Assembly (NCBI GenBank): GCA_016699245.1
Contig: CP064968.1
Coordinates: 219,386 to 283,385 of the forward strand
Length of the DNA: 64,000 bases
From: Candidatus Kaiserbacteria bacterium
GTDB taxonomy: Bacteria > Patescibacteriota > Minisyncoccia > Phycocordibacterales > UBA918
Direction of reading: 5' to 3'
The position numbers were made by a program, and so were the translations under genes. The notes under the pieces were generated by a model that was not told the DNA's origin, made no database searches, and worked only from the letters and a program-made list of their open reading frames with translations. Shown piece after piece: positions 1 to 60,507 of this stretch. Each line of letters starts with the position of its first letter. Position 1 is the first letter of the stretch.

Positions 1-150
1 CTTACTGGGGAAGATATACGTTCTCGTTGTGCCAAAAACCCAGCATATTTACCGAAGGGAAGTACGGTGGAAAATGCCATATGCGAATCTCCTCACGCAT
101 CCCACATACTCGACAACTTTGTCTATCTCATCATGTACGGCGATAAATAA
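1..150 (+). CDS. 3' end of an unidentified CDS running in from upstream (frame 1, ends ...YLIMYGDK*)
   Basis: Open frame from base 1 to the TAA at 148-150; no recognisable motif. Confidence 0.25.
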   Translation, partial: LTGEDIRSRCAKNPAYLPKGSTVENAICESPHASHILDNFVYLIMYGDK

Positions 151-837
151 TCACCACACTATTGGTGTTTTCTTGTTTTGTTTTAGATAGGTGTTTGTCA
201 TACTAAAGTGCTTTGAGCCGAAGAAACCTGAGCGCGCAGAAAAAGGGGAGGGGTGTGGTGCGGTGAGTATGAGATGTTTGGTGGTGTCAATAAACACACT
301 TTTCTTTTGCGCATTATTACCCCAAAGCAAAAACACGACATGTTCTTTTTCATTAGAAATTTTTTGAATGACCGCATTGGTAAAAGTTTCCCAACCAATG
401 TCCTTGTGTGAGTTTGGTGCGCCATCACGTACGGTGAGAGTAGTATTGAAAAGAAATACCCCCTGTTCCGCCCAGTGTGTAAGATTACCATGCGTGCGAA
501 GCGGAATCCCCAAATCATTTTGGAGTTCTTTAAATATATTTTTAAGTGAAGGTGGTATGCGAACTTCGTCTGGCACTGAAAAACAAAGTCCATGTGCTTG
601 GCCTTCACCATGGTAGGGGTCTTGACCGAGAATGACTACTTTGATTGCATCAAAGGGGCAAACTGAAAAAGCATTAAAAACAAATGGTAGAGGAGGGTAC
701 ACAGGCTTATGCGTACGGTACTCTTTGCGCACCGTGCGCATGAGATCAGCAAAATACGGCTTCTGGAACTCCTCCTTAAGGACTTCTTTCCACGATGATT
801 CAAAATCCGTATGCATTCTGCATAGTATAGCGCACAT
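151..837 (-). CDS. ung: Uracil-DNA glycosylase (family 1)
   Basis: Motifs VVILGQDPYHG...QAHGLCFS, HPSPFSA, typical UNG length. Confidence 0.9.
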   Translation of the reverse strand: MCAILCRMHTDFESSWKEVLKEEFQKPYFADLMRTVRKEYRTHKPVYPPLPFVFNAFSVCPFDAIKVVILGQDPYHGEGQAHGLCFSVPDEVRIPPSLKNIFKELQNDLGIPLRTHGNLTHWAEQGVFLFNTTLTVRDGAPNSHKDIGWETFTNAVIQKISNEKEHVVFLLWGNNAQKKSVFIDTTKHLILTAPHPSPFSARSGFFGSKHFSMTNTYLKQNKKTPIVW

Positions 838-2258: not shown

Positions 2259-3518
2259 ATGCAGTCCACATTTCACAACAGTACATTTCCCAAAGACTTA
2301 GTTAAAGAAGTGAGTAAAAAAGCCCATGCATACAGACTAAAAATAGAAAAAGTGCAGGAAAGTGGTATTTTTGAACGTTCTGAGTCCTCACTCTGTATCG
2401 CGGGCGATGGAGCGTACCAGAAAGACATCAAGAAACGTCTCGCTCCATTCACAGGCACAAAACACGTTATTTTGGTTGCTATTGGCGGCTCAATGCAGGG
2501 TGTGCAAGCTGTATATGATGCATGTGTCAGTAAAGAAATTCCTCGATTGAGTATTGTTGACAGTATCGAAGAGAAGTACATAGAAGATATGCGCCGCATC
2601 ATTAGTGTTACCAAAGATGCACGTGACATTGTGCTTGTCGTAGTGAGTAAGTCAGGAACAACGACAGAGACTATGCTCAATGCACTTCACATCATTGGAC
2701 TTTGGGAAAAAAAGTTTGGTGAGGCATTTTTAAAACAAATTATTTTCATTGGCAATGAAGGCACACCGTTTCTCGAAGCAGGAGCAAAAAAAAATATACT
2801 GAGCTTTACGCTTCCACATTCTATTGGGGGAAGGTTTTCCGTTTTTTCTGCTGTAGGCGTTGTACCGCTCACTCTTCTGGGAATAAATATACCGCAGTTA
2901 CTGAAAGGTGCACTTGATGCGGTCAAAAGTGAGGCACTCACTCACGTTGAAGAAAGTGCAGTTACGCTTGCACTCCATGCATATTCTGGAGTGCACACAG
3001 TCAACTTTTTTTCTTTTAACCGACGACTTCGTTCTTGTGGTTTATGGTACCGTCAGCTACTCGCCGAAAGTACTGGTAAAAGCACTACAAAAGCAGGGAC
3101 CCCCTTCATGCATCAGTTGCTTCCTATTGTATCAACAAGTGCAGATTTACACTCTAGTGCAGAACTGTATTTAGGAGGCTATACGGGTATCTATACACAC
3201 TTTGTGTACTACACTGAACGCACGAGCGCACGAATGCCTCAGGTTCATTGGTTACTCGAACACCTTCCGTTTCTTAAAAACAGAAAATCGTCAGTCATAA
3301 AAGATATTATTACCGAAGGTGTGCTTCATGCATATAATGACCAAATGCTTCCGTATCGCTACACAAAGTTAGAAAAATGCACCGAGTACGAAGTGGGTTT
3401 TCTCCTTGCGTCACTCATGGCAGAAGTAATGTATATTGGATATCTCTTCAACATCGACACCTTCGACCAACCCAGTGTGGAATTTTATAAAAAGTATGTA
3501 AGAGCAGAATTGAGTTAG
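2259..3518 (+). CDS. pgi: Glucose-6-phosphate isomerase (short form)
   Basis: IGGSMQG, SKSGTTTET, GGRFSVFSAVG motifs. Confidence 0.85.
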   Translation: MQSTFHNSTFPKDLVKEVSKKAHAYRLKIEKVQESGIFERSESSLCIAGDGAYQKDIKKRLAPFTGTKHVILVAIGGSMQGVQAVYDACVSKEIPRLSIVDSIEEKYIEDMRRIISVTKDARDIVLVVVSKSGTTTETMLNALHIIGLWEKKFGEAFLKQIIFIGNEGTPFLEAGAKKNILSFTLPHSIGGRFSVFSAVGVVPLTLLGINIPQLLKGALDAVKSEALTHVEESAVTLALHAYSGVHTVNFFSFNRRLRSCGLWYRQLLAESTGKSTTKAGTPFMHQLLPIVSTSADLHSSAELYLGGYTGIYTHFVYYTERTSARMPQVHWLLEHLPFLKNRKSSVIKDIITEGVLHAYNDQMLPYRYTKLEKCTEYEVGFLLASLMAEVMYIGYLFNIDTFDQPSVEFYKKYVRAELS

Positions 3519-3519
3519 T

Positions 3520-4371
3520 ATGTATATTCTTTTTGACATCGGCGGCACCAAAACCCGAGTAGCATCAACAAACGACCTAGAGACAATTCTTCGCGTAGAA
3601 AAATTTAATACTCCACTCTCGTATGCCGAAGGTCTTGCGGCTATTGTGGCAGCCATAGAAACAGTGCGTGGAGGTGAGAGTGTGACCGCGATGGCGGGAG
3701 GTATTCGAGGACCTCTCAATCACGAAAAGACTGGAATTGTGAGCGAAAAAGTTTTGATGGACTGGGTTGGGCGCTCGATTACTGGCGACCTCAACCAAAA
3801 ATATCATGCACCCGTGTTTCTCGAAAACGATACCGCCATAGTTGGTCTTGGAGAGGTGCATTACGGTGCAGGGAAGGGAGCAGACATAGTGGCGTACCAC
3901 ACGGTGAGTACTGGGGTAGGGGGTGCACGATATGTGCATGGGCACATTGATGCAGTAAGTGTCGGATTTGAGCCTGGCCAACAGATTTTGGATATTGATA
4001 GAACTATACTTGGCAGTCATGTGTCTCCAACTCTGGAAAATATGGTGTCAGGCACTGCGCTCGAAAAACGAAAGGGAATGAAGCCATATGAAATATCTCA
4101 GGAAGATCATGTATGGGACGAGCTCGCGGGAATATTGGCATTTGGACTTAAAAACACCATTGTGTACTGGTCTCCAGACGTTATTGTACTCGGTGGTTCT
4201 ATGGTAATTGGTGACCCCCGTATTCTCCTCCCCGACATCATTCGTCATACTGAAGAGGCCCTGGGCGGGCTTCTTCTATGCCCTAAGATAGTCGATGCAA
4301 CCTTGAAAGATGAGGGTGGACTCTATGGTGCGATGGCACTCATCAAAGAAAAACAAGGCAACATAAAATAA
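3520..4371 (+). CDS. ROK-family sugar kinase (glucokinase-like)
   Basis: FDIGGTKTR N-terminus, LENDTAIVGLGE, ROK signature spacing. Confidence 0.7.
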   Translation: MYILFDIGGTKTRVASTNDLETILRVEKFNTPLSYAEGLAAIVAAIETVRGGESVTAMAGGIRGPLNHEKTGIVSEKVLMDWVGRSITGDLNQKYHAPVFLENDTAIVGLGEVHYGAGKGADIVAYHTVSTGVGGARYVHGHIDAVSVGFEPGQQILDIDRTILGSHVSPTLENMVSGTALEKRKGMKPYEISQEDHVWDELAGILAFGLKNTIVYWSPDVIVLGGSMVIGDPRILLPDIIRHTEEALGGLLLCPKIVDATLKDEGGLYGAMALIKEKQGNIK

Positions 4372-16874: not shown

Positions 16875-18257
16875 CTAGAATTTTTCAGCGATTTTTACAA
16901 GCAATCTCATTGGCTCCCCCGTGGCGCCTTTGGCGAGTTTGTCGCTGGCTACGGACGTCATACGTGGTGCCATATCTATGTGAACCCATTTCATTTTCTT
17001 GGTGAAGTGCGAAAGGAATGCACCTGCAGTAATGGTGCCTCCGTAGCGTGTATCGCCAGAATGAATATTGGAAATATCACCGTGTACTCCCTTTGTGTAC
17101 TGTGTGTATTCGTCCCAGAGTGGTAGTGGGAAGGTGTAGTCGCCACTCTCTTCGCCGAGGTCACGAAAGGCGTCTTCAAGCTTTCTGCTCTTTGTCATAA
17201 TCACATGTGCATGTTGTCCTACTGCCACGAGTGATGCTCCAGTGAGTGTCGCAATATCGACCACCAACTTCGGCTCATACTTTCGTGCGTAGTGGAGTGC
17301 GTCCGCAAGAATGAGTCGCCCCTCTGCATCGGTATGGAGAACATCAACGGTCTTTCCCGACATCATAGTGAGTACATCACCAGGACGAATGGCATCATCG
17401 CCGACGTTGTTTTCAACTGCAGGAATAAGCCCAATACAATTTTTCTTTAGCCCCAGTTTTGCAATCGCCGCAAGAGCAGCAATAACTGCTGCGCCACCCG
17501 ACATATCCATATGCATTTCGTACATGGCCATACCTGGCTTAATTTGGAGTCCTCCAGTATCGAAGGTAACTCCCTTCCCGACTAATACAATTGGTTTCTC
17601 AGTCTTCTTTCCGCCAAAGTATTCAATAATAATAAATCGCGGCTTATGCTTCGATCCTTTCCCTACCCCAATAACGCCACCCATACCGAGTTTTGTAATT
17701 TGCTTTTCGTCGAGAACAGTTACCTTTGCTTTGGTACCCATGAGAATTTCTTTTGCCTTCGATGCAAGTATTGTGGGGGTCATATCGCTTCCGGGGGTGT
17801 TTGCTATGTCTCGGCACATATTGGTATAGGTGGCGAGGGTGATACCGTGCGCGACGAAGTCGCGCACGGTCTTCACGTCGTCTACAAGCAAAGCCACTTC
17901 TTTGAGAGCGTATTTTGGCTGTTTGCTCTTGTATGTGGTGTATTCGTAATTAGCAAGGATAAGATTTTCTGCAATGGTACTCCAGAACCACGCTTCATCA
18001 TACTGAGCGCATTTTGGAAAAGTGGTGTACGAAAACGTCAATGCAATTTTTTCTATCTTATGACGTTTTGCCGTTTGTATTACATTACGCACAAGTGTGC
18101 GGAGGGTACGGGGTGTTACTTTTGCTAACTTCCCAATATTGATTTCGAGTATTTCACTTTTTCCCTCACGAATGATTCGCTCGATGCCCTTTTCTGTAAA
18201 TACCACCTGAGTGTGACCTCTCGTTGACTTTCCCGTTTTTTCAACGTTAATCTGCAT
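16875..18257 (-). CDS. pepA: Leucyl aminopeptidase (M17)
   Basis: NTDAEGRLILADAL motif, length. Confidence 0.85.
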   Translation of the reverse strand: MQINVEKTGKSTRGHTQVVFTEKGIERIIREGKSEILEINIGKLAKVTPRTLRTLVRNVIQTAKRHKIEKIALTFSYTTFPKCAQYDEAWFWSTIAENLILANYEYTTYKSKQPKYALKEVALLVDDVKTVRDFVAHGITLATYTNMCRDIANTPGSDMTPTILASKAKEILMGTKAKVTVLDEKQITKLGMGGVIGVGKGSKHKPRFIIIEYFGGKKTEKPIVLVGKGVTFDTGGLQIKPGMAMYEMHMDMSGGAAVIAALAAIAKLGLKKNCIGLIPAVENNVGDDAIRPGDVLTMMSGKTVDVLHTDAEGRLILADALHYARKYEPKLVVDIATLTGASLVAVGQHAHVIMTKSRKLEDAFRDLGEESGDYTFPLPLWDEYTQYTKGVHGDISNIHSGDTRYGGTITAGAFLSHFTKKMKWVHIDMAPRMTSVASDKLAKGATGEPMRLLVKIAEKF

Positions 18258-19593
18258 TGTCTTGTGGCTTAGAGAGGAGTGTGTCGATGCGGTTGATATC
18301 GCGCGGGAAAAGTGTTGCTTCTTTTACGTTTGAGAGCCCACAAAACTTTGCAGTGAGACGCTCGAGCCCAAGTCCAATACCTCCATGTGGTGGAATGCCA
18401 TACTTAAAGGCCTGAAGATAAAATTCAAATTTTTCCGGATCAAGCCCTTTTTCCTTGATGCGTTCAATGAGGGTGTTGTAGTCATGCACACGCTGTCCAC
18501 CTGAGCACATTTCAAGCCCACGGAAGAGCATGTCGAAACTACGGGTGAACTCTGGATTCTCTGGCTCTACATGTGTATAGAATGGGCGTTTCTTTGTGGG
18601 AAAATGGGTAACAAACACAAAGTCTGAACCGAGGTGCTCGTGTGCATAGTCACAAAGGAAACGTTCGTCTTCAGGTTCGAGGTCTGGTTCTTTAGTTTTA
18701 TCCACACCCGTTTCTTTTTTGATAAGTTCTTGTGCTTCACGAAGGGTCATTACAGGAAAGGCTTCAGGTGCAAGTGGTACAGGCATACCGAGAAGTGCAA
18801 GTTCCGCAGAACACTTTGTTGCAACTGCTTCCGTGATTGCGCGTGATAATCCGGTCACCATTTTTATCACATCAGTATGGTCCTTGATGAATCCCATTTC
18901 GAAGTCGAGCATTGAGATTTCACTCAGATGACGTGTCGTTGCGCTTTTTTCTGCACGGAACATGGTACCTGAAGTAAAGACACGCTCAAAGACACCCACC
19001 ATCATTTGCTTATAAAGTTGAGGGCTGGTTGCAAGGTACGCGCGTTGATTGTTGAAGTAATCTACTTGGAATACTTCTGCGCCACCTTCTGCATCTCCAC
19101 CCACAAGTTTTGGTGCTTGAAATTCTACGAAGCCTTGGCTTATGAGGTATGCACGGTAGGCGTTGATGATGGTGTGTTGCACGGTAAATACCGCACGTTC
19201 GCGTGGGCGGCGAAGCGTGATGGGGCGATTATCGAGAAGGGTGTCGAGGTTGAGTTCTGAATCGAGGTCAAACGGAAGTGCTTGTGCAACACCGAGGACT
19301 GTGACTCCCGAAATTTCGAGTTCAATGTCACCGTTTTGCACTTTTGCATTTACCATCTTTTCTTGGCGCGCATGTACAAGGCCAGTTAATTCAAGTGTGT
19401 AGCCCGGCTTTACCTCCTGTACCGACGCGAGCAACTCTGGTTTACCAAAGATGATTCCCTGAATAATACCCGTGCGGTCACGAAAATCAAAAAATGCTAC
19501 CTTTCCTTGGTTACGAATAACACTCACCGAGGCTTGGATAGTTACATTTTGCTCAAGGTAATCCTTAAGGTCTTTAATTAAAATTCTTTCCAT
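18247..19593 (-). CDS. aspS: Aspartyl-tRNA synthetase, archaeal/eukaryotic short type (possibly non-discriminating)
   Basis: Class IIb core FRAE...RH, SPQLYKQ (AspRS-type QSPQ motif), GLGLERL..FPRD C-terminus; ~448 aa without the bacterial GAD insertion. Confidence 0.75.
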   Translation of the reverse strand: MERILIKDLKDYLEQNVTIQASVSVIRNQGKVAFFDFRDRTGIIQGIIFGKPELLASVQEVKPGYTLELTGLVHARQEKMVNAKVQNGDIELEISGVTVLGVAQALPFDLDSELNLDTLLDNRPITLRRPRERAVFTVQHTIINAYRAYLISQGFVEFQAPKLVGGDAEGGAEVFQVDYFNNQRAYLATSPQLYKQMMVGVFERVFTSGTMFRAEKSATTRHLSEISMLDFEMGFIKDHTDVIKMVTGLSRAITEAVATKCSAELALLGMPVPLAPEAFPVMTLREAQELIKKETGVDKTKEPDLEPEDERFLCDYAHEHLGSDFVFVTHFPTKKRPFYTHVEPENPEFTRSFDMLFRGLEMCSGGQRVHDYNTLIERIKEKGLDPEKFEFYLQAFKYGIPPHGGIGLGLERLTAKFCGLSNVKEATLFPRDINRIDTLLSKPQDNAD

Positions 19594-19599
19594 ATCGTT

Positions 19600-19860
19600 T
19601 ATGTGTCAGCAGAGGAAATTAAAATACCGCCCCCACAGATATATTAAGGAATAATGTATCGATAGGGGCGGTTTCTAAATGTTGGGTTTCGTAAACCCAA
19701 CATGAGAGATTCCGCGGTGCCACCCTACTTCCCTTTCTCTTGCAAACCATTCGGTTTTGCAAGAGAAAAAGCTCATTTATGCGCTATACGGGCGCACCCG
19801 GTACCTCGGCAAGTGTCAATTGCGTCAGTGGTAATGTCATTACTATATAAGCCAAGAACG
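19600..19860 (-). promoter_or_regulatory. T-box riboswitch leader preceding aspS
   Basis: Minus-strand sequence contains AAGTAGGGTGGCACCGCGG (T-box consensus AGGGUGGNACCGCG). It is preceded by a 10-bp Stem III-like hairpin (CTCTTGCAAA...TTTGCAAGAG) and followed by a terminator hairpin ACCGCCCC...GGGGCGGTATTTT just before the aspS ATG. Confidence 0.65.
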
Positions 19861-19862
19861 TA

Positions 19863-20807
19863 TTAGTCAACGATACCTACCTTGGAACGGACTATACGCA
19901 TCTTTGACTCAGCATGGTCACGAGCACGCTTTGCTCCGTCCAGTAGCACTTGGCGCACCACTTCATCAGTAATAGCTTCTCGTTTTTCACGCATAGGTGC
20001 AACCAGTGTTTCAATGTCTTCAATAAGTGCTTCTTTGAGGTTTTTATACTTCCCTGCATGCTCGGTGTACAGTGCCTCAAGTTCTTCAGCTGTTCTAAAA
20101 AGTGAGTGAATGGCGTACACATGCTGTGGGCGTTCACCCGATGAATCAGTCACAATGCTCATGACTGCCTTTGCAATTTCGTCCCTTGTCCCAAAGAGTG
20201 GAATGGTGTTTTTGTAACTCTTACTCATCTTTTGACCATCAGTGCCAGGCACAACGCCGACACTTTCCAATATCATCTCCGCTGGTGCAATGAAGGTCTC
20301 TCCATATGCATTATTAAACTTCGTCACTGCTTCGCGTGCATACTCAATGTGCTGACGCTGGTCCTCCCCTACCGGCACGATATCAGCATCGTAGAGAAGA
20401 ATATCTGCCGCCATGAGCATAGGGTAGTTGAAGAGCCCCGCACTCGCCTCCATGCCTTTTGCAACTTTGTCTTTATAAGCATGCGCCTGCATGAGAAAAG
20501 GTACCGTTACGAGACATTCAAACATCCATGCAAGTTCGGTGTGTTCAGGTATATCGGATTGCTTAAAAATAACAACATCATCAGGACTCACTCCTGCCGC
20601 AAGGTAGTCACGTACGATATCAAGCGTGTTTTGACGCAGCAGTTGTGCGTCACGTACACTTGTGAGCGCATGAAGGTCGGCAATCATGAGATAACTCTCG
20701 TACTCACCACACACATCCTTAAAAGGCTTAAGTGCACCAAAATAATTACCAATATGGAGTGTCCCTGAAGGCTGTAGCCCCGTGAAGAGTCGTTTTTTGT
20801 TGCTCAT
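19863..20807 (-). CDS. trpS: Tryptophanyl-tRNA synthetase
   Basis: QPSGTLHIGNY (HIGH), KMSKS present. Confidence 0.9.
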   Translation of the reverse strand: MSNKKRLFTGLQPSGTLHIGNYFGALKPFKDVCGEYESYLMIADLHALTSVRDAQLLRQNTLDIVRDYLAAGVSPDDVVIFKQSDIPEHTELAWMFECLVTVPFLMQAHAYKDKVAKGMEASAGLFNYPMLMAADILLYDADIVPVGEDQRQHIEYAREAVTKFNNAYGETFIAPAEMILESVGVVPGTDGQKMSKSYKNTIPLFGTRDEIAKAVMSIVTDSSGERPQHVYAIHSLFRTAEELEALYTEHAGKYKNLKEALIEDIETLVAPMREKREAITDEVVRQVLLDGAKRARDHAESKMRIVRSKVGIVD

Positions 20808-24607: not shown

Positions 24608-25014
24608 TTCCTACCCCCTTCATTCAGAATTTTAACTATACATATTTAAACATATATAACATCATAAGTCAATTATTCATCCCTAAATTTGCGCATCGGC
24701 AAATTGCTGTAGCGGGTAAGTAGTTTGTTTGTAAAAGTAAGAAAATTCTAGTTTTCTATATATCCATTTAGTATTCACTTATAAACCCATACATGAATTT
24801 TCAAGCCCTGTTAAAAATCATGCCAACGACTATACCGAGAATAAGTATGAGTCCAGGAATGACAAAAAGACCCACTACCATCTCCTTTTTACCCGAACCA
24901 TACACTCGACAAGTTTCTCGATTGCTGGCATTAGTTTTGACATATAAAATTCACTATAACAGGAAAACAAGGGAATAAATCTGGATTTGTCAGATTACAG
25001 AAATGTGTTTGGAA

Positions 25015-26959: not shown

Positions 26960-27248
26960 CTTCCTTCACCCCATATTTTTTCATGTCTTCTACAAAAATC
27001 GCATGTTTTGCAGAATTGCATGACGAAAGTTCACAGTAGGTGGTTTTTTGCTCTGGAAACGTGTGGATAGCAAAATGGCTTTCGGCAATGAGCCATAAAG
27101 CTGTGTAGCCATAGGGATAAAAATGGTGCTCACTGAATCCAATCATCATAAACTCAGCCTTTTCTAATGCTGACTTACCGAATTCAAACACCTTTTTAGG
27201 GTCTGTCTCGTCAATGTAAAAACGAAAATTCCAAATTGTGGCTTTCAT
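26952..27248 (-). CDS. speH: S-adenosylmethionine decarboxylase proenzyme, small pyruvoyl-dependent class
   Basis: LIAESHFAIHTFPE self-processing ES site motif; ~100 aa. Confidence 0.7.
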   Translation of the reverse strand: MKATIWNFRFYIDETDPKKVFEFGKSALEKAEFMMIGFSEHHFYPYGYTALWLIAESHFAIHTFPEQKTTYCELSSCNSAKHAIFVEDMKKYGVKEVE

Positions 27249-27336
27249 GTTTTTAGATTATAACACAATAGTTGTTAAAATCAAATCACTTGTGGACAAT
27301 CTTTCCTCATACATATAGCTTATTGTGTATGCGATG

Positions 27337-37671: not shown

Positions 37672-37673
37672 AT

Positions 37674-37790
37674 TTATCCTTGTCGTTGCTTATTACGAGG
37701 TTTCTTTTTGTTAATAACATACACATGACCGCGACGGCGGACAATCTTGTCGTCTGGACTAATTTTTTTGACTGATGATCGAACTTTCAT
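37674..37790 (-). CDS. rpmJ: 50S ribosomal protein L36 (38 aa; not in ORF track, below size cut-off)
   Basis: Minus-strand translation [38 protein letters not shown]. Confidence 0.8.
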
Positions 37791-37792
37791 AA

Positions 37793-38017
37793 TTAAAGGC
37801 GTTTAGAGATTCGTGCTTTTCCACCGTATGGTTCAGGAACTACTGCTACCCTGTCTCCAACGAGAACACGAATTTTAAATTTTCGCATTTTCCCTGCTAG
37901 GTACGCAATTATCGGTGTCTCAGCTCCATCCAGTAAAACTCGAAAAAGCGCATTAGGGAGCGCCTCCTCTACAGTTCCATAGACGAGTTGTTCTTTGTCT
38001 GATTTTTCTTGCATCAA
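37793..38017 (-). CDS. infA: Translation initiation factor IF-1
   Basis: S1-like fold sequence ...[17 protein letters not shown]....[16 protein letters not shown]. Confidence 0.85.
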
Positions 38018-38089
38018 ACGACCGTGATTTTAACAAACTATACTAAAAGAGTCAACTACCTGTATCCACTTCTGTTTTACACTGTATTT

Positions 38090-56599: not shown

Positions 56600-56630
56600 A
56601 ATATATAAATTGTGTGCTTATTTTGGGAAA

Positions 56631-56900
56631 AGTAAAGAACCCAACTCCGGAGGAGTTGGACCAGGGGTTCTTTGCTAGCATAGGAATCGGCCACCGCCGA
56701 TGCTATTTTTATGTCGCTAAGCGCGACGGACTAGTAAAGAACCACACTCTGAAAGAGTATGACCAGGGTTCTTTGCTAGCATAGGAATCGGCCACCGCCG
56801 ATGCATTTTTTATGTCGCTAAGCGCGACAGACTAGTAAAGAACCCAACACTCAAAAGTGTAGGACCGGGGGTTCTTTGTTAGTAACTGAAGTCATTTTTA
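56631..56900. repeat. Array of three ~101-bp structured units (A 56631-56732, B 56733-56833, C 56834-~56900): variable hairpin + conserved terminator-like hairpin
   Basis: Each unit = AGTAAAGAACC + variable palindromic ~17 nt + ACCAGGGGTTCTTT, then (A, B) GCTAGCATAGGAATCGGCCACCGCCGATGCTATTTTT and GTCGCTAAGCGCGAC. The variable tips are each self-complementary. Confidence 0.75.
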
Positions 56901-56903
56901 CAC

Positions 56904-56940
56904 TTACCGTATACGTAACAGGTGTTACGTATACGGTAAG
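56904..56940. promoter_or_regulatory. Perfect 18-bp-arm inverted repeat CTTACCGTATACGTAACA-GG-TGTTACGTATACGGTAAG; candidate operator upstream of the plus-strand gene at 57037
   Basis: Read directly; a TATACT -10-like box follows ~70 bp downstream. Confidence 0.6.
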
Positions 56941-57036
56941 GTGGTCCGGGTGAGAATTTGAGGTTAATACTTGTAGAAGACTACACCCAGACAGAATCAA
57001 GGATATGTTATACTCTCAACCTAATCCCCCACATAT

Positions 57037-57306
57037 ATGAAATCAGAAGATATGCAGAAGGCGCCAAAATTGTTTTGTGAAAGCATTAAGGTTGGCTTCA
57101 CCCCAGAGTATTTTGTTATTGGACTTAGCTCTGGCTCACAATCGTCAATTTTTTCACTCACTCCCGGACATACAAAACGTTTGCAGCAGTACCTGACGCA
57201 CGAAATTTCACAATTTGAAAAAGCGCATGGTGAGATTAAATCTGAATGGAACCCTAATGTCGTCAGTCCTGTACAAAATGTGATTCCTCCGAATCAGATG
57301 AGTTAA
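57037..57306 (+). CDS. Small hypothetical protein (89 aa)
   Basis: ORF preceded by a promoter-like TATACT and followed by a strong terminator. Confidence 0.35.
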   Translation: MKSEDMQKAPKLFCESIKVGFTPEYFVIGLSSGSQSSIFSLTPGHTKRLQQYLTHEISQFEKAHGEIKSEWNPNVVSPVQNVIPPNQMS

Positions 57307-57310
57307 AAAA

Positions 57311-57336
57311 TCCCCGCAGCTGCGGGGATTTTTTTA
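57311..57336. terminator. Bidirectional intrinsic terminator (AAAAAATCCCCGCAGCTGCGGGGATTTTTTT)
   Basis: Perfect 8-bp GC stem with A-run and T-run flanks between convergent genes. Confidence 0.75.
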
Positions 57337-59638: not shown

Positions 59639-59743
59639 GAAAATAAAATGCGCCAGCAAAGGCGCGTTATTCCCTATAAAATACGTCATTTTCTGCATTT
59701 AGTCAAATTTTAAAGAAAATATCTGCATTTGCATGCAGATATT

Positions 59744-60001
59744 TTATGAAACCCCTCCTTTGTGCTGCCTTGCGCGCATCTTTAGAATCATTTCCCTTGG
59801 GATGTCTATGACGGTATAGAACCACAGAGCAAATGACCGTTCGATGACATTCTCAAGAACATATTTTTCTAAACCGCCCGCTACATATATTCTTGCCGCA
59901 AGGTACTTTTTCTCCTCAATAAGGTTTTGATACTCAAGCAGTTGTTCTTCGTTTAATACAAATTCAGCCATTAAGCCAACATCGTATACGTTATACATCA
60001 T
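59744..60001 (-). CDS. Small hypothetical protein (85 aa)
   Basis: ORF only. Confidence 0.3.
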   Translation of the reverse strand: MMYNVYDVGLMAEFVLNEEQLLEYQNLIEEKKYLAARIYVAGGLEKYVLENVIERSFALWFYTVIDIPREMILKMRARQHKGGVS

Positions 60002-60041
60002 GCACCTCCTTTCACATTGTTCCTGTGTATAAGTATACTCC

Positions 60042-60335
60042 TCATTTCTTTTTCTTTCTTGCTCCCTGTGATTTCTTTTTCTTTCTTGCTCCCTGTGATT
60101 TCACGAGTGTTTCTTTTTCTTCTTTTTTTAGTTTCTTGAGTTGATGTTCGCGCACCTGTGCCTCGCTCCGCGAGGCACAGGACTCCACATACACCACACT
60201 TATGGGAATTTTAGCCTTCGTATACTTCGCCCCTACCTTCCCCTCTTTGTGCTCTTTAAAGCGACGCTCCACATCAGTCGTCGCTCCCGTATAGAGTGAC
60301 CCATCGCTACAGCGAATCATGTATACCAACCACAT
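60042..60335 (-). CDS. GIY-YIG nuclease-family small protein with duplicated basic C-terminal tail
   Basis: LVYMIRCSDGSLYTGATTDVERRFKEH (GIY-YIG core); C-terminal SQGARKKKK x2 from a 27-bp tandem DNA repeat (60045-60098). Confidence 0.6.
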   Translation of the reverse strand: MWLVYMIRCSDGSLYTGATTDVERRFKEHKEGKVGAKYTKAKIPISVVYVESCASRSEAQVREHQLKKLKKEEKETLVKSQGARKKKKSQGARKKKK

Positions 60336-60425
60336 AGTTAATTTGAAATAAATCTTTAAAGTGTTACTATATTTCTACCTACCTAAAAAAGTGTTAGCCG
60401 CACTTTTGCTTTGGGCAAATGGCTA

Positions 60426-60506
60426 CCACGGGACACTGGATGATGGGTTCTAGTATTGGCGAGAGAACGAACCCGCAAGATTAACCAGTTAATCCCGTGG
60501 TTTTTT
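60426..60506 (+). ncRNA. Candidate small structured RNA / compound terminator
   Basis: 8-bp closing helix CCACGGGA...TCCCGTGG enclosing GGGTTC...GAACCC and TTAA-CCAG-TTAA hairpins, followed by TTTTTT; intergenic between GIY-YIG and ychF. Confidence 0.3.
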
Positions 60507-60507
60507 A

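Follow-up and report, generated by a model that had tools for sequence, protein, structure and literature searches.

What lies in the 269-nt spacer (19594-19862, minus strand) between trpS (19863-20807) and aspS in a 64,000-nt stretch of the genome of a Candidatus Kaiserbacteria bacterium (contig CP064968.1, positions 219,386 to 283,385; "the window" below), and how would it work if, as a first-pass annotation proposed, it is a T-box leader controlling the aspartyl-tRNA synthetase (AspRS) gene? T-box riboswitches, which are antibiotic targets, serve as the standard example of a structured RNA that reads another RNA. From structural and single-molecule studies comes the rule that they capture tRNA either with a distal platform on Stem I, as in classes I and II, or with Stem II, as in classes III and IV, and that fast binding by transcriptional T-boxes in particular depends on the platform. 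Our analysis supports the proposed interpretation, with corrections regarding Rfam, the hairpins and the architecture of Stem I, and we estimate a probability of about 0.8 that the spacer encodes a T-box riboswitch that attenuates transcription in response to tRNA-Asp. What makes it interesting is how it is built, more than that a T-box exists: the leader joins a class III-type Stem I to the class II-type absence of Stem II and to a transcription terminator.

The spacer folds more stably than any of 200 shuffled versions (z = -6.1), and its 3' half carries the signature of a T-box discriminator. The 14-nt T-box consensus AGGGUGGCACCGCG (equal to AGGGTGGNACCGCG and AGGGUGGNACCGCG), which the first-pass annotation had called near-exact, is exact at 19713-19726 of the minus strand, inside the string AAGTAGGGTGGCACCGCGG at 19712-19730, and occurs nowhere else in the window (0 mismatches; 0.02 occurrences expected with one mismatch allowed). 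The T-box sequence AGUAGGGUGGCACCGCGG (19712-19729) comprises the 5' strand of helix A1 (AGGG, 19723-19726), a 7-nt bulge (UGGCACC, 19716-19722) and the 5' strand of helix A2 (GCGG, 19712-19715), while the 3' strands A2' (CCGC) and A1' (CCCU; together CCGCCCCU, 19664-19671) double as the 5' strand of the terminator. Folded without constraint from the T-box sequence to CCCU, the RNA takes up the canonical antiterminator as its minimum free energy (MFE) structure (-24.4 kcal/mol), with A1 as AGGG:CCCU, A2 as GCGG:CCGC and UGGCACC bulged out. The two helices close around a 40-nt apical insertion (19672-19711) that contains a hairpin, AUGUUGGGUUU-ACG-AAACCCAACAU at 19679-19703 (inner part GUUGGGUUU-ACG-AAACCCAAC, 19681-19701). 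The competing intrinsic terminator, ACCGCCCCUAUCGAUA...UAUCUGUGGGGGCGGU with its U-tract (19616-19672), consists of a hairpin at 19626-19672 (ACCGCCCC...GGGGCGGU; -26.7 kcal/mol) and the tract AUUUUAAUUU at 19616-19625, which ends 22 nt 5' of the aspS ATG at 19593; a simple terminator scan missed it, its loop and stem being above the limits of the scan. Two candidate terminator hairpins had been proposed, and both exist, but the first is the insertion in the antiterminator loop and only the second competes with the antiterminator; we regard this second hairpin as the real terminator because AUUUUAAUUU follows it directly and its 5' strand is shared with A2'/A1'. For the whole leader, the terminator state was computed at -91.4 kcal/mol versus -77.5 kcal/mol with the antiterminator enforced, i.e., the terminator is favored by about 14 kcal/mol, which in the folding model is the usual default-OFF design.

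Relatives of this leader were collected through the downstream enzyme. An AspRS protein search retrieved Patescibacteria (Candidate Phyla Radiation, CPR) labeled Kaiserbacteria, Paceibacteria, Minisyncoccia and the like, the best relative being 91% identical, and a metagenome scan added only about six further close relatives. In all, about 25 aspS loci from CPR genomes and metagenomes (given here by L numbers) have a T-box upstream in a common layout. Thirteen leaders, namely that of the window and those of L001-L006, L008, L009, L081, L083, L094 and L097, make up a clade that lacks Stem II (the window clade below), with AspRS identities from 91% down to 58% and a Stem I built from a common K-turn (kink-turn), a helix of 3-4 bp and an apical loop; L011 and the 5'-truncated L082 are similar. 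Every family member has a terminator that overlaps A2'/A1' and is followed by a U-rich tract, and the apical region of the antiterminator has a length of 3-59 nt, depending on the member (A2 of L002 and L004 was assigned by eye, as the automatic finder over-extended it there). In L006, the complete sensor, Stem I through antiterminator, fits into about 100 nt.

The 5' half of the leader begins with an ultrashort Stem I (19802-19833, minus strand), delimited by the Rfam alignment and by covariation, in which the C-stem UACC:GGUA leads through a K-turn-like internal loop to a second helix of 4 bp, GCAA:UUGC, and this is capped by the 7-nt terminal loop UUGACAC (19813-19819). An 'ultrashort' Stem I was reportedly described by Sherwood et al. 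in 2015 for actinobacterial ileS (Nocardia farcinica/Mycobacterium tuberculosis). The K-turn-like loop has an ACU bulge, tandem G.A/A.G pairs and a C.C mismatch, and its pattern (C-stem, 3-nt bulge, G.A A.G), a predicted fold recognized at the sequence level, is aligned by Rfam to the model positions UGA...GAG; all aligned relatives have the K-turn G and A. Upstream, a promoter-like site at 19842-19870 (TTGACT at 19865-19870, a 17-nt spacer and TATAGT at 19842-19847; 10 of 12 matches) has a -10 hexamer that ends 8 nt 5' of Stem I, leaving no extra 5' sequence for a distal platform. A site of the form TTGAC(G/T)-16/17 nt-TA(C/T)NNT lies 5-8 nt 5' of Stem I in most members of the window clade (the fit is poorer in L009, and in L002 the promoter scorer picked a wrong site). 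Neither does the stem itself hold a platform of interdigitated T-loop motifs (IDTM), the AG bulge with the distal loop on which the tRNA elbow docks, for Stem I closes with its 7-nt loop 4 bp above the K-turn.

Within the terminal loop, the triplet GAC (19815-19817) is followed by the conserved purine A (19814). A specifier of GAC or GAU followed by A is found in every relative 5' of aspS, except for three leaders with AAC-A discussed below (L016, L018 and L125), and among the members with GAC or GAU (GAY members) the apical loop reads N-U-G-A-Y-A-(N), in which U-G-A-Y-A is invariant, the exchange of GAC and GAU is the sole change in the triplet, and A always comes next. Because of G34.U wobble, this is the single change that a GUC anticodon tolerates. 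The loop is, in addition, laid out like an anticodon loop, with a U33-like U before the triplet and a purine-37-like A after it, and recognition would therefore be in effect a loop-loop kissing contact. Another GAC, in the K-turn strand (ACUGAC), was rejected as specifier, since relatives have GAA, GAG or GAU in its place. Judged by its specifier, GAC then A, the window leader is a predicted sensor of tRNA-Asp; the first-pass annotation had left GAC versus AAC to be read from a folded Stem I, and the stem does fold, with covariation to back it.

Between Stem I and the T-box sequence, the linker has no space for Stem II, because a putative Stem IIA/B-like pseudoknot with an F-box-like CCCGUAUAGC (19779-19800, minus strand; aligned by Rfam to IIA/B and F-box positions) begins 1 nt after Stem I. 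Its hairpin, CGG(G)-UGCG-(C)CCG, has a loop that would pair with the downstream GCGCA(U), and six pseudoknot pairs are possible in CGG-GUGCGC-CCG-UAUA-GCGCAU. The element is homologous to CGGG-N-CCCGUAAUAGC of the relatives that carry Stem II, and within the window clade it is present in the window and L002 only; the closest relative, L001 (contig CAZMYZ010000003.1), lacks it. As the copies of the window and L002 are identical, the element yields no covariation, and by eye its loop/linker pairs differ among more distant leaders (UUUG:CAAA in L025, UUUG:UAAA in L040, AGC:GCU in L016). The other 11 of the 13 clade members have an unstructured linker of 11-20 nt in the position of Stem II, before a GAG-type (RAG) motif, and the S-turn-like AAGAAAG/UAAGUAGAA is present in more distant relatives only. 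A relocation of Stem II to the antiterminator insertion, whose hairpin is flanked by AAUCUCUC/UUAGAAA, was considered and rejected, as the flanks are not conserved in L001-L004 and bear no S-turn signature. The purine motif itself (AUGAG, 19772-19776, in the window; A(C/U)GAG(R)G in most clade members) stands directly 5' of Stem III, a hairpin at 19732-19771 delimited by folding and by covariance model (CM) alignment. The hairpin that had been noticed before the T-box is thus Stem III, with a length of about 16-18 bp rather than 10 bp, and per-sequence folding places a hairpin of 4-19 bp and of unrelated sequence at this position in every clade member.

Covariation supports each of these helices apart from the IIA/B-like element. 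In a Stem I alignment of 11 sequences, the upper helix is paired in 97.6% of cases, with compensatory changes at three of its four pairs, and none of 500 shuffled alignments reached the score. A MAFFT alignment of the 13-sequence clade gave 98% pairing and compensatory changes at all four pairs for the Stem I helix, with 100% pairing of A1 and 98% of A2, against 38-47% for slid controls; again 0 of 500 shuffles reached the score. Among the seven members that have the insertion hairpin, it is 96% paired, and 7 of its 11 pairs show compensatory changes. MAFFT misaligns the variable-length Stem III (58% paired), which was resolved by per-sequence folding and CM alignment. The 22-sequence CM alignment, being model-guided and hence biased towards the structure of R1 (our covariance model of the family), has 87.5% of cells paired (42-47% in slid controls) and compensatory changes at 37 of 40 pairs, including all 16 pairs of Stem III; its upper Stem I helix is 97.4% paired, and 0 of 500 shuffles reached any of five measures. 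A1 and A2 show compensatory changes in both the MAFFT and the CM alignments.

Beyond the window clade, the family is architecturally diverse. L016, L018, L025, L040, L043 and L125 pair an apical-loop Stem I with Stem II (the S-turn-like motif) and IIA/B, L014 and L098 have a longer Stem I, and in L053, L077 and L113 the GAC-A cap sits on scaffolds of other kinds. Downstream genes tested among the relatives all encode a non-discriminating (ND) AspRS. The three AAC-A (Asn) leaders place their triplet in the same loop register 5' of the same ND aspS (L016, 1389-1640; L018, 3535-3790; L125, 2786-2935); L016 and L018 have the loop ACAACA and the bulge UGGU, L125 the loop AAAACA and the bulge UGGC. 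L014, which is close to L016 and L018, has GAC-A in an internal loop of its longer Stem I and the bulge UGGU, and it is the only GAY member that departs from the otherwise invariant bulge. Given AAC-A specifiers 5' of the same enzyme, some lineages appear to monitor tRNA-Asn instead, and the two kinds of leader suggest specifier switching between the two tRNA substrates of the enzyme, with a U.G73 wobble tolerated.

The bulge bears on the other end of the tRNA. Its UGGC is complementary to tRNA 3'-ACCG73 and predicts a cognate tRNA with G73, and G73 of tRNA-Asp is an established identity element. The one tRNA-Asn found in 60 loci, a CPR tRNA-Asn(GUU) at 602-675 (minus strand) of L025, has U1-A72 and G73 and no encoded CCA. 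A U1-A72 pair is associated with GatCAB-dependent formation of Asn-tRNA (PMC4206432), and the U1-A72 of this tRNA would therefore fit use of the indirect Asn pathway in the CPR group.

From these elements, the following mechanism can be proposed. Transcription would start at about 19835, at the foot of Stem I, and the GUC anticodon of tRNA-Asp would pair with GAC in the 7-nt terminal loop of the K-turn-based Stem I. If the tRNA is uncharged, its 3'-G73-C-C-A would pair with UGGC in the bulge and stabilize the antiterminator with its 40-nt insert, so that RNA polymerase could read into aspS and the aminopeptidase gene that overlaps it. If the tRNA is charged or absent, A2'/A1' would pair downstream to form the terminator with its U-tract, and transcription would stop 22 nt before the ATG. 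We infer from the conserved elements that tRNA binding and tRNA-dependent read-through take place, and in particular that they work without a distal platform and without Stem II. Candidate compensations for the missing modules may be the K-turn geometry, a K-turn-binding protein, a helix extended by U.A37 and A.U33, or a lower affinity that suffices.

Several points weigh against this reading and have to be set beside it. The Rfam T-box model RF00230, which had been suggested as a check, gives no match at its gathering score (93), and a permissive search of 501 nt returned 17 bits (E = 0.14); for a refutation, however, the first-pass annotation had also asked that no Stem I or specifier loop could be folded, and one does fold, with covariation. 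None of 18 related leaders passes the Rfam gathering score either. In the Rfam alignment, which covers the K-turn, the IIA/B-like hairpin with its F-box-like CCGU-AU, Stem III and the T-box sequence, 74 distal Stem I model positions shrink to 5 nt, the alignment skips Stem II and it leaves the antiterminator unclosed; these deletions and the unclosed antiterminator account for the low score, and with no match at the gathering score in the window or in the 18 related leaders, Rfam is unusable as a test here. Published work adds that a short Stem I makes Stem II necessary (PMC10482949), that the IDTM is, according to a 2020 review (PMC7583486), a general requirement of transcriptional T-boxes, and that shortening Stem II abolished tRNA binding by M. 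tuberculosis ileS (PMC11297988); the reading is weakened because both modules deemed necessary for tRNA capture, platform and Stem II, are missing from the window leader. The MFE structures of the full leader and of the nascent transcript, furthermore, pair the T-box 5' strand (19706-19725) with the 3' strand of Stem I and IIA (19790-19806) over about 17 bp with bulges, which sequesters the T-box strand; in the folding model this pairing is a possible anti-antiterminator, or it may be a coincidence of GC-rich quasi-palindromes, IIA being found only in the window and L002. Finally, no tRNA-Asp gene was found in the 64-kb window or in the 60 loci, so its anticodon loop and G73 could not be read from them.

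Does the family then consist of working switches? The leaders could instead be decaying class III-like relics that have had no useful tRNA binding since Stem II was lost, and that act as constitutive leaky attenuators or are regulated otherwise. This would fit the essential role of Stem II in the short-Stem-I T-boxes studied, the patchiness of accessory elements in the clade (IIA/B in the window and L002 only, Stem III of 4-19 bp, inserts of 4-59 nt) and the loss of the entire leader in L007, L010 and L048. It is nevertheless unlikely, as U-GAY-A, the K-turn, the bulge, both antiterminator helices and the terminator are retained in at least 13 species-level sequences that lack Stem II (AspRS 91%-58%), every helix shows compensatory changes, the position of the promoter is kept, and a dead specifier hairpin would not hold its triplet to Asp codons. 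We likewise consider it very improbable that the leader is a translational sequestrator/antisequestrator switch as in actinobacterial ileS T-boxes: all apical-loop-specifier T-boxes described so far are translational, but the competing helix in this family is a strong hairpin with a U-rich tract directly after it in every member, the terminator of the window ends 22 nt before the ATG and leaves the start region uncovered, and neither a Shine-Dalgarno (SD) sequestrator in the window leader nor, by eye, an SD-like sequence 5' of the ATG in the window clade was found (L077 and L098 do have such a sequence).

A subtler alternative concerns specificity, since the enzyme is of the aspartate--tRNA(Asn) ligase type and the CPR tRNA-Asn described above, with G73 and U1-A72 (PMC4206432), would suit the UGGC bulge as well as tRNA-Asp. 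The leader might thus sense both, pairing GAC perfectly with tRNA-Asp (GUC) and through a G.U36 wobble with tRNA-Asn (GUU), a wobble that could be tolerated as the Stem II S-turn, which monitors geometry (PMC7778990), is absent. AAC-A in the same register 5' of the same enzyme in L016, L018 and L125 counts in favor of such dual sensing, for which a two-tRNA T-box of Clostridium acetobutylicum (PMC4052509) offers a precedent. The same three leaders also speak against it, however, in that Asn-sensing lineages appear to have switched to AAC and not to rely on wobble, and the GAU variants (L003, L009, L081 and L083) would need two wobbles with GUU; we regard dual sensing as a quite unlikely account of the window leader and retain a T-box specific for tRNA-Asp as the preferred one.

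Whereas Rfam fails, R1 finds the family. It scores the window at 181 bits, a value that holds by construction as the window is in its training set, and leaders outside the training set at 79 bits (L040), 77 (L082), 64 (L011 and L113), 62 (L014), 58 (L018), 54 (L016), 46 (L025), 44 (L043), 30 (L077) and 29 (L125). A strict regular expression for the T-box core missed the AUGG/AGGA cores of L014 and L025, which a looser expression and R1 recovered. R1 found no second copy in the 64-kb window. The T-box database TBDB ran its short-Stem-I model on Actinobacteria and class I hits only (PMC7778990), and with Rfam and TBDB-type pipelines missing the whole family, the distribution of T-boxes is underestimated; R1 or an equivalent model could be used for surveying CPR genomes.

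The regulated gene, aspS (18247-19593, minus strand), encodes an archaeal-type ND AspRS of 448 aa, which scores 477.5 bits against the NCBIfam equivalog NF003483 (aspartate--tRNA(Asn) ligase; cut-off, 353), in agreement with the first-pass description of the enzyme as the short archaeal/eukaryotic type, which is frequently non-discriminating. Its 3' end overlaps by 11 nt the gene of a leucyl aminopeptidase (pepA, 16875-18257, minus strand), and this overlap, which is also kept in L001-L005 and L081, makes it probable that the two genes are co-transcribed under the one leader; the tRNA-Asp switch would thereby probably control a peptidase too, which is plausible in an amino-acid-scavenging organism. 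Genes in the window are tightly packed, and the spacers 5' of other synthetase genes, at 8 nt (gltX), 84 nt (trpS) and 47 nt (a 798-aa open reading frame, ORF), have no room for a leader, as had been pointed out. In the leaderless close relatives L007, L010 and L048, trpS and aspS are about 15-20 nt apart, which marks the leader as a discrete inserted or deleted unit. No asnS, gatA or gatB was found among the window ORFs of 380-460 aa, a result that says nothing on the whole genome; ARAGORN found no tRNA gene in the 64-kb window, and no Rfam family reached its gathering score there. Other long non-coding gaps in the window (between ORFs of at least 110 aa) lie, e.g., at about 24608-25014, 26960-27336, 37672-38089, 56600-57333 and 59699-60507.

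Three observations on the related loci stand apart from the window leader. L004, whose aspS itself carries the minimal T-box, has a second T-box-like leader at 62-292 (minus strand; core AAAAAAGGGUGGUACCACG, UGGU bulge, terminator and U-tract; 35.7 bits with R1), which is of a different build, reaches no Rfam gathering-score match and precedes a gene that runs off the locus. In L025, the Asp T-box (1847-2046; loop UUGACA, Stem II and IIA/B, core AGGAUGGCACC) lies about 2 kb 5' of aspS (4001), and two hypothetical ORFs between them (2074-2787, 237 aa; 2832-3722, 296 aa) may belong to the same tRNA-Asp-controlled unit as aspS. At L017, L020, L032, L035, L036, L057, L066-L068, L072 and L073, finally, 350-700 nt of non-coding sequence precede aspS, in which we found no recognizable T-box core and no R1 match; those of L017 and L032 have conserved stretches in common, and upstream regions of this type may hold a different leader.

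If the proposed reading is right, codon-anticodon pairing together with NCCA pairing would suffice for co-transcriptional tRNA sensing, perhaps aided by the K-turn, by a protein that binds it or by U.A37/A.U33 extension of the kissing helix, which would run counter to the present view that a T-box cannot do without both auxiliary modules; a conserved, covarying family with a terminator and neither module would in this sense be a direct test of the rule on tRNA capture. It would also define a minimal natural tRNA sensor that could be useful for engineering, extend T-boxes to the CPR, and imply that the CPR, whose reduced genomes are regarded as poor in regulation, keep an enzyme with two tRNA substrates under tRNA-based feedback. 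In the literature searched, we found no report of T-boxes in CPR/Patescibacteria, which is no proof of novelty.

How, then, does the leader compare with known T-boxes? Among the four classes defined in PMC10482949, class I combines Stem II with a long Stem I that bears the IDTM platform, class II (glyQS) keeps the IDTM but has a single-stranded linker in place of Stem II, and in class III (ileS) Stem I is short, lacks the IDTM and presents the specifier in a penta- or hexanucleotide apical loop. Class III resembles the window leader in this short Stem I, whose small apical loop presents the specifier with a purine after it, in Stem III and in the canonical T-box bulge, and it has a IIA/B pseudoknot, of which the window leader carries a putative counterpart (PMC10482949, PMC7583486). 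It differs in needing Stem II, which jointly with Stem I forms the anticodon-binding groove, and in being translational, Ile-specific and actinobacterial, whereas the window leader has a terminator, is Asp-specific by its specifier and comes from the CPR; the six relatives with Stem II (L016, L018, L025, L040, L043 and L125) are class III-like, yet carry terminators. The class II T-box of Bacillus subtilis glyQS resembles the window leader in being transcriptional, in having no Stem II and in its basal Stem I K-turn and discriminator domain, but it compensates for the missing Stem II with a long Stem I, the IDTM of which is stacked against the elbow of the tRNA, and it has an internal-loop specifier and specificity for glycine.

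Two further systems resemble single features of the leader. The transamidation-operon T-box of C. acetobutylicum was reportedly treated by Saad et al. in 2012 and 2013. According to the citing papers PMC4206432 and PMC4052509, it controls the indirect Asn-tRNA pathway together with its AspRS, so that both Asn (AAC) specifiers and dual specificity have a precedent there, although it is from a Firmicute and has two overlapping codons (Asn/Glu), whereas the window leader reads GAC only. The 'stem Sa' of staphylococcal glyS is, like the insertion in the window leader, a lineage-specific insertion of ~40 nt into the antiterminator/terminator domain, with 42 nt in S. aureus, and standard detection tools likewise missed these leaders (PMC9177973), but S. 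aureus glyS keeps a long Stem I and differs in lineage, specificity and sequence, and the insert is optional (3-59 nt) in the window family.

Taken against these systems, the window leader has the core T-box features (the T-box sequence, a bulged antiterminator versus a terminator, a specifier followed by a purine, the K-turn and Stem III), and because it has what the core definition asks for and lacks the defining features of each published class, we place it as a T-box of a new architectural variant. What is new, on its predicted structure, is a transcriptional T-box with an apical specifier and neither platform nor Stem II, one or the other of which is always present in the published classes I-IV. 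By a narrow preference, we lean towards viewing the CPR aspS leaders as a functional fifth architectural class of T-boxes, transcriptional, with an anticodon-loop-like apical specifier, no platform and no Stem II.

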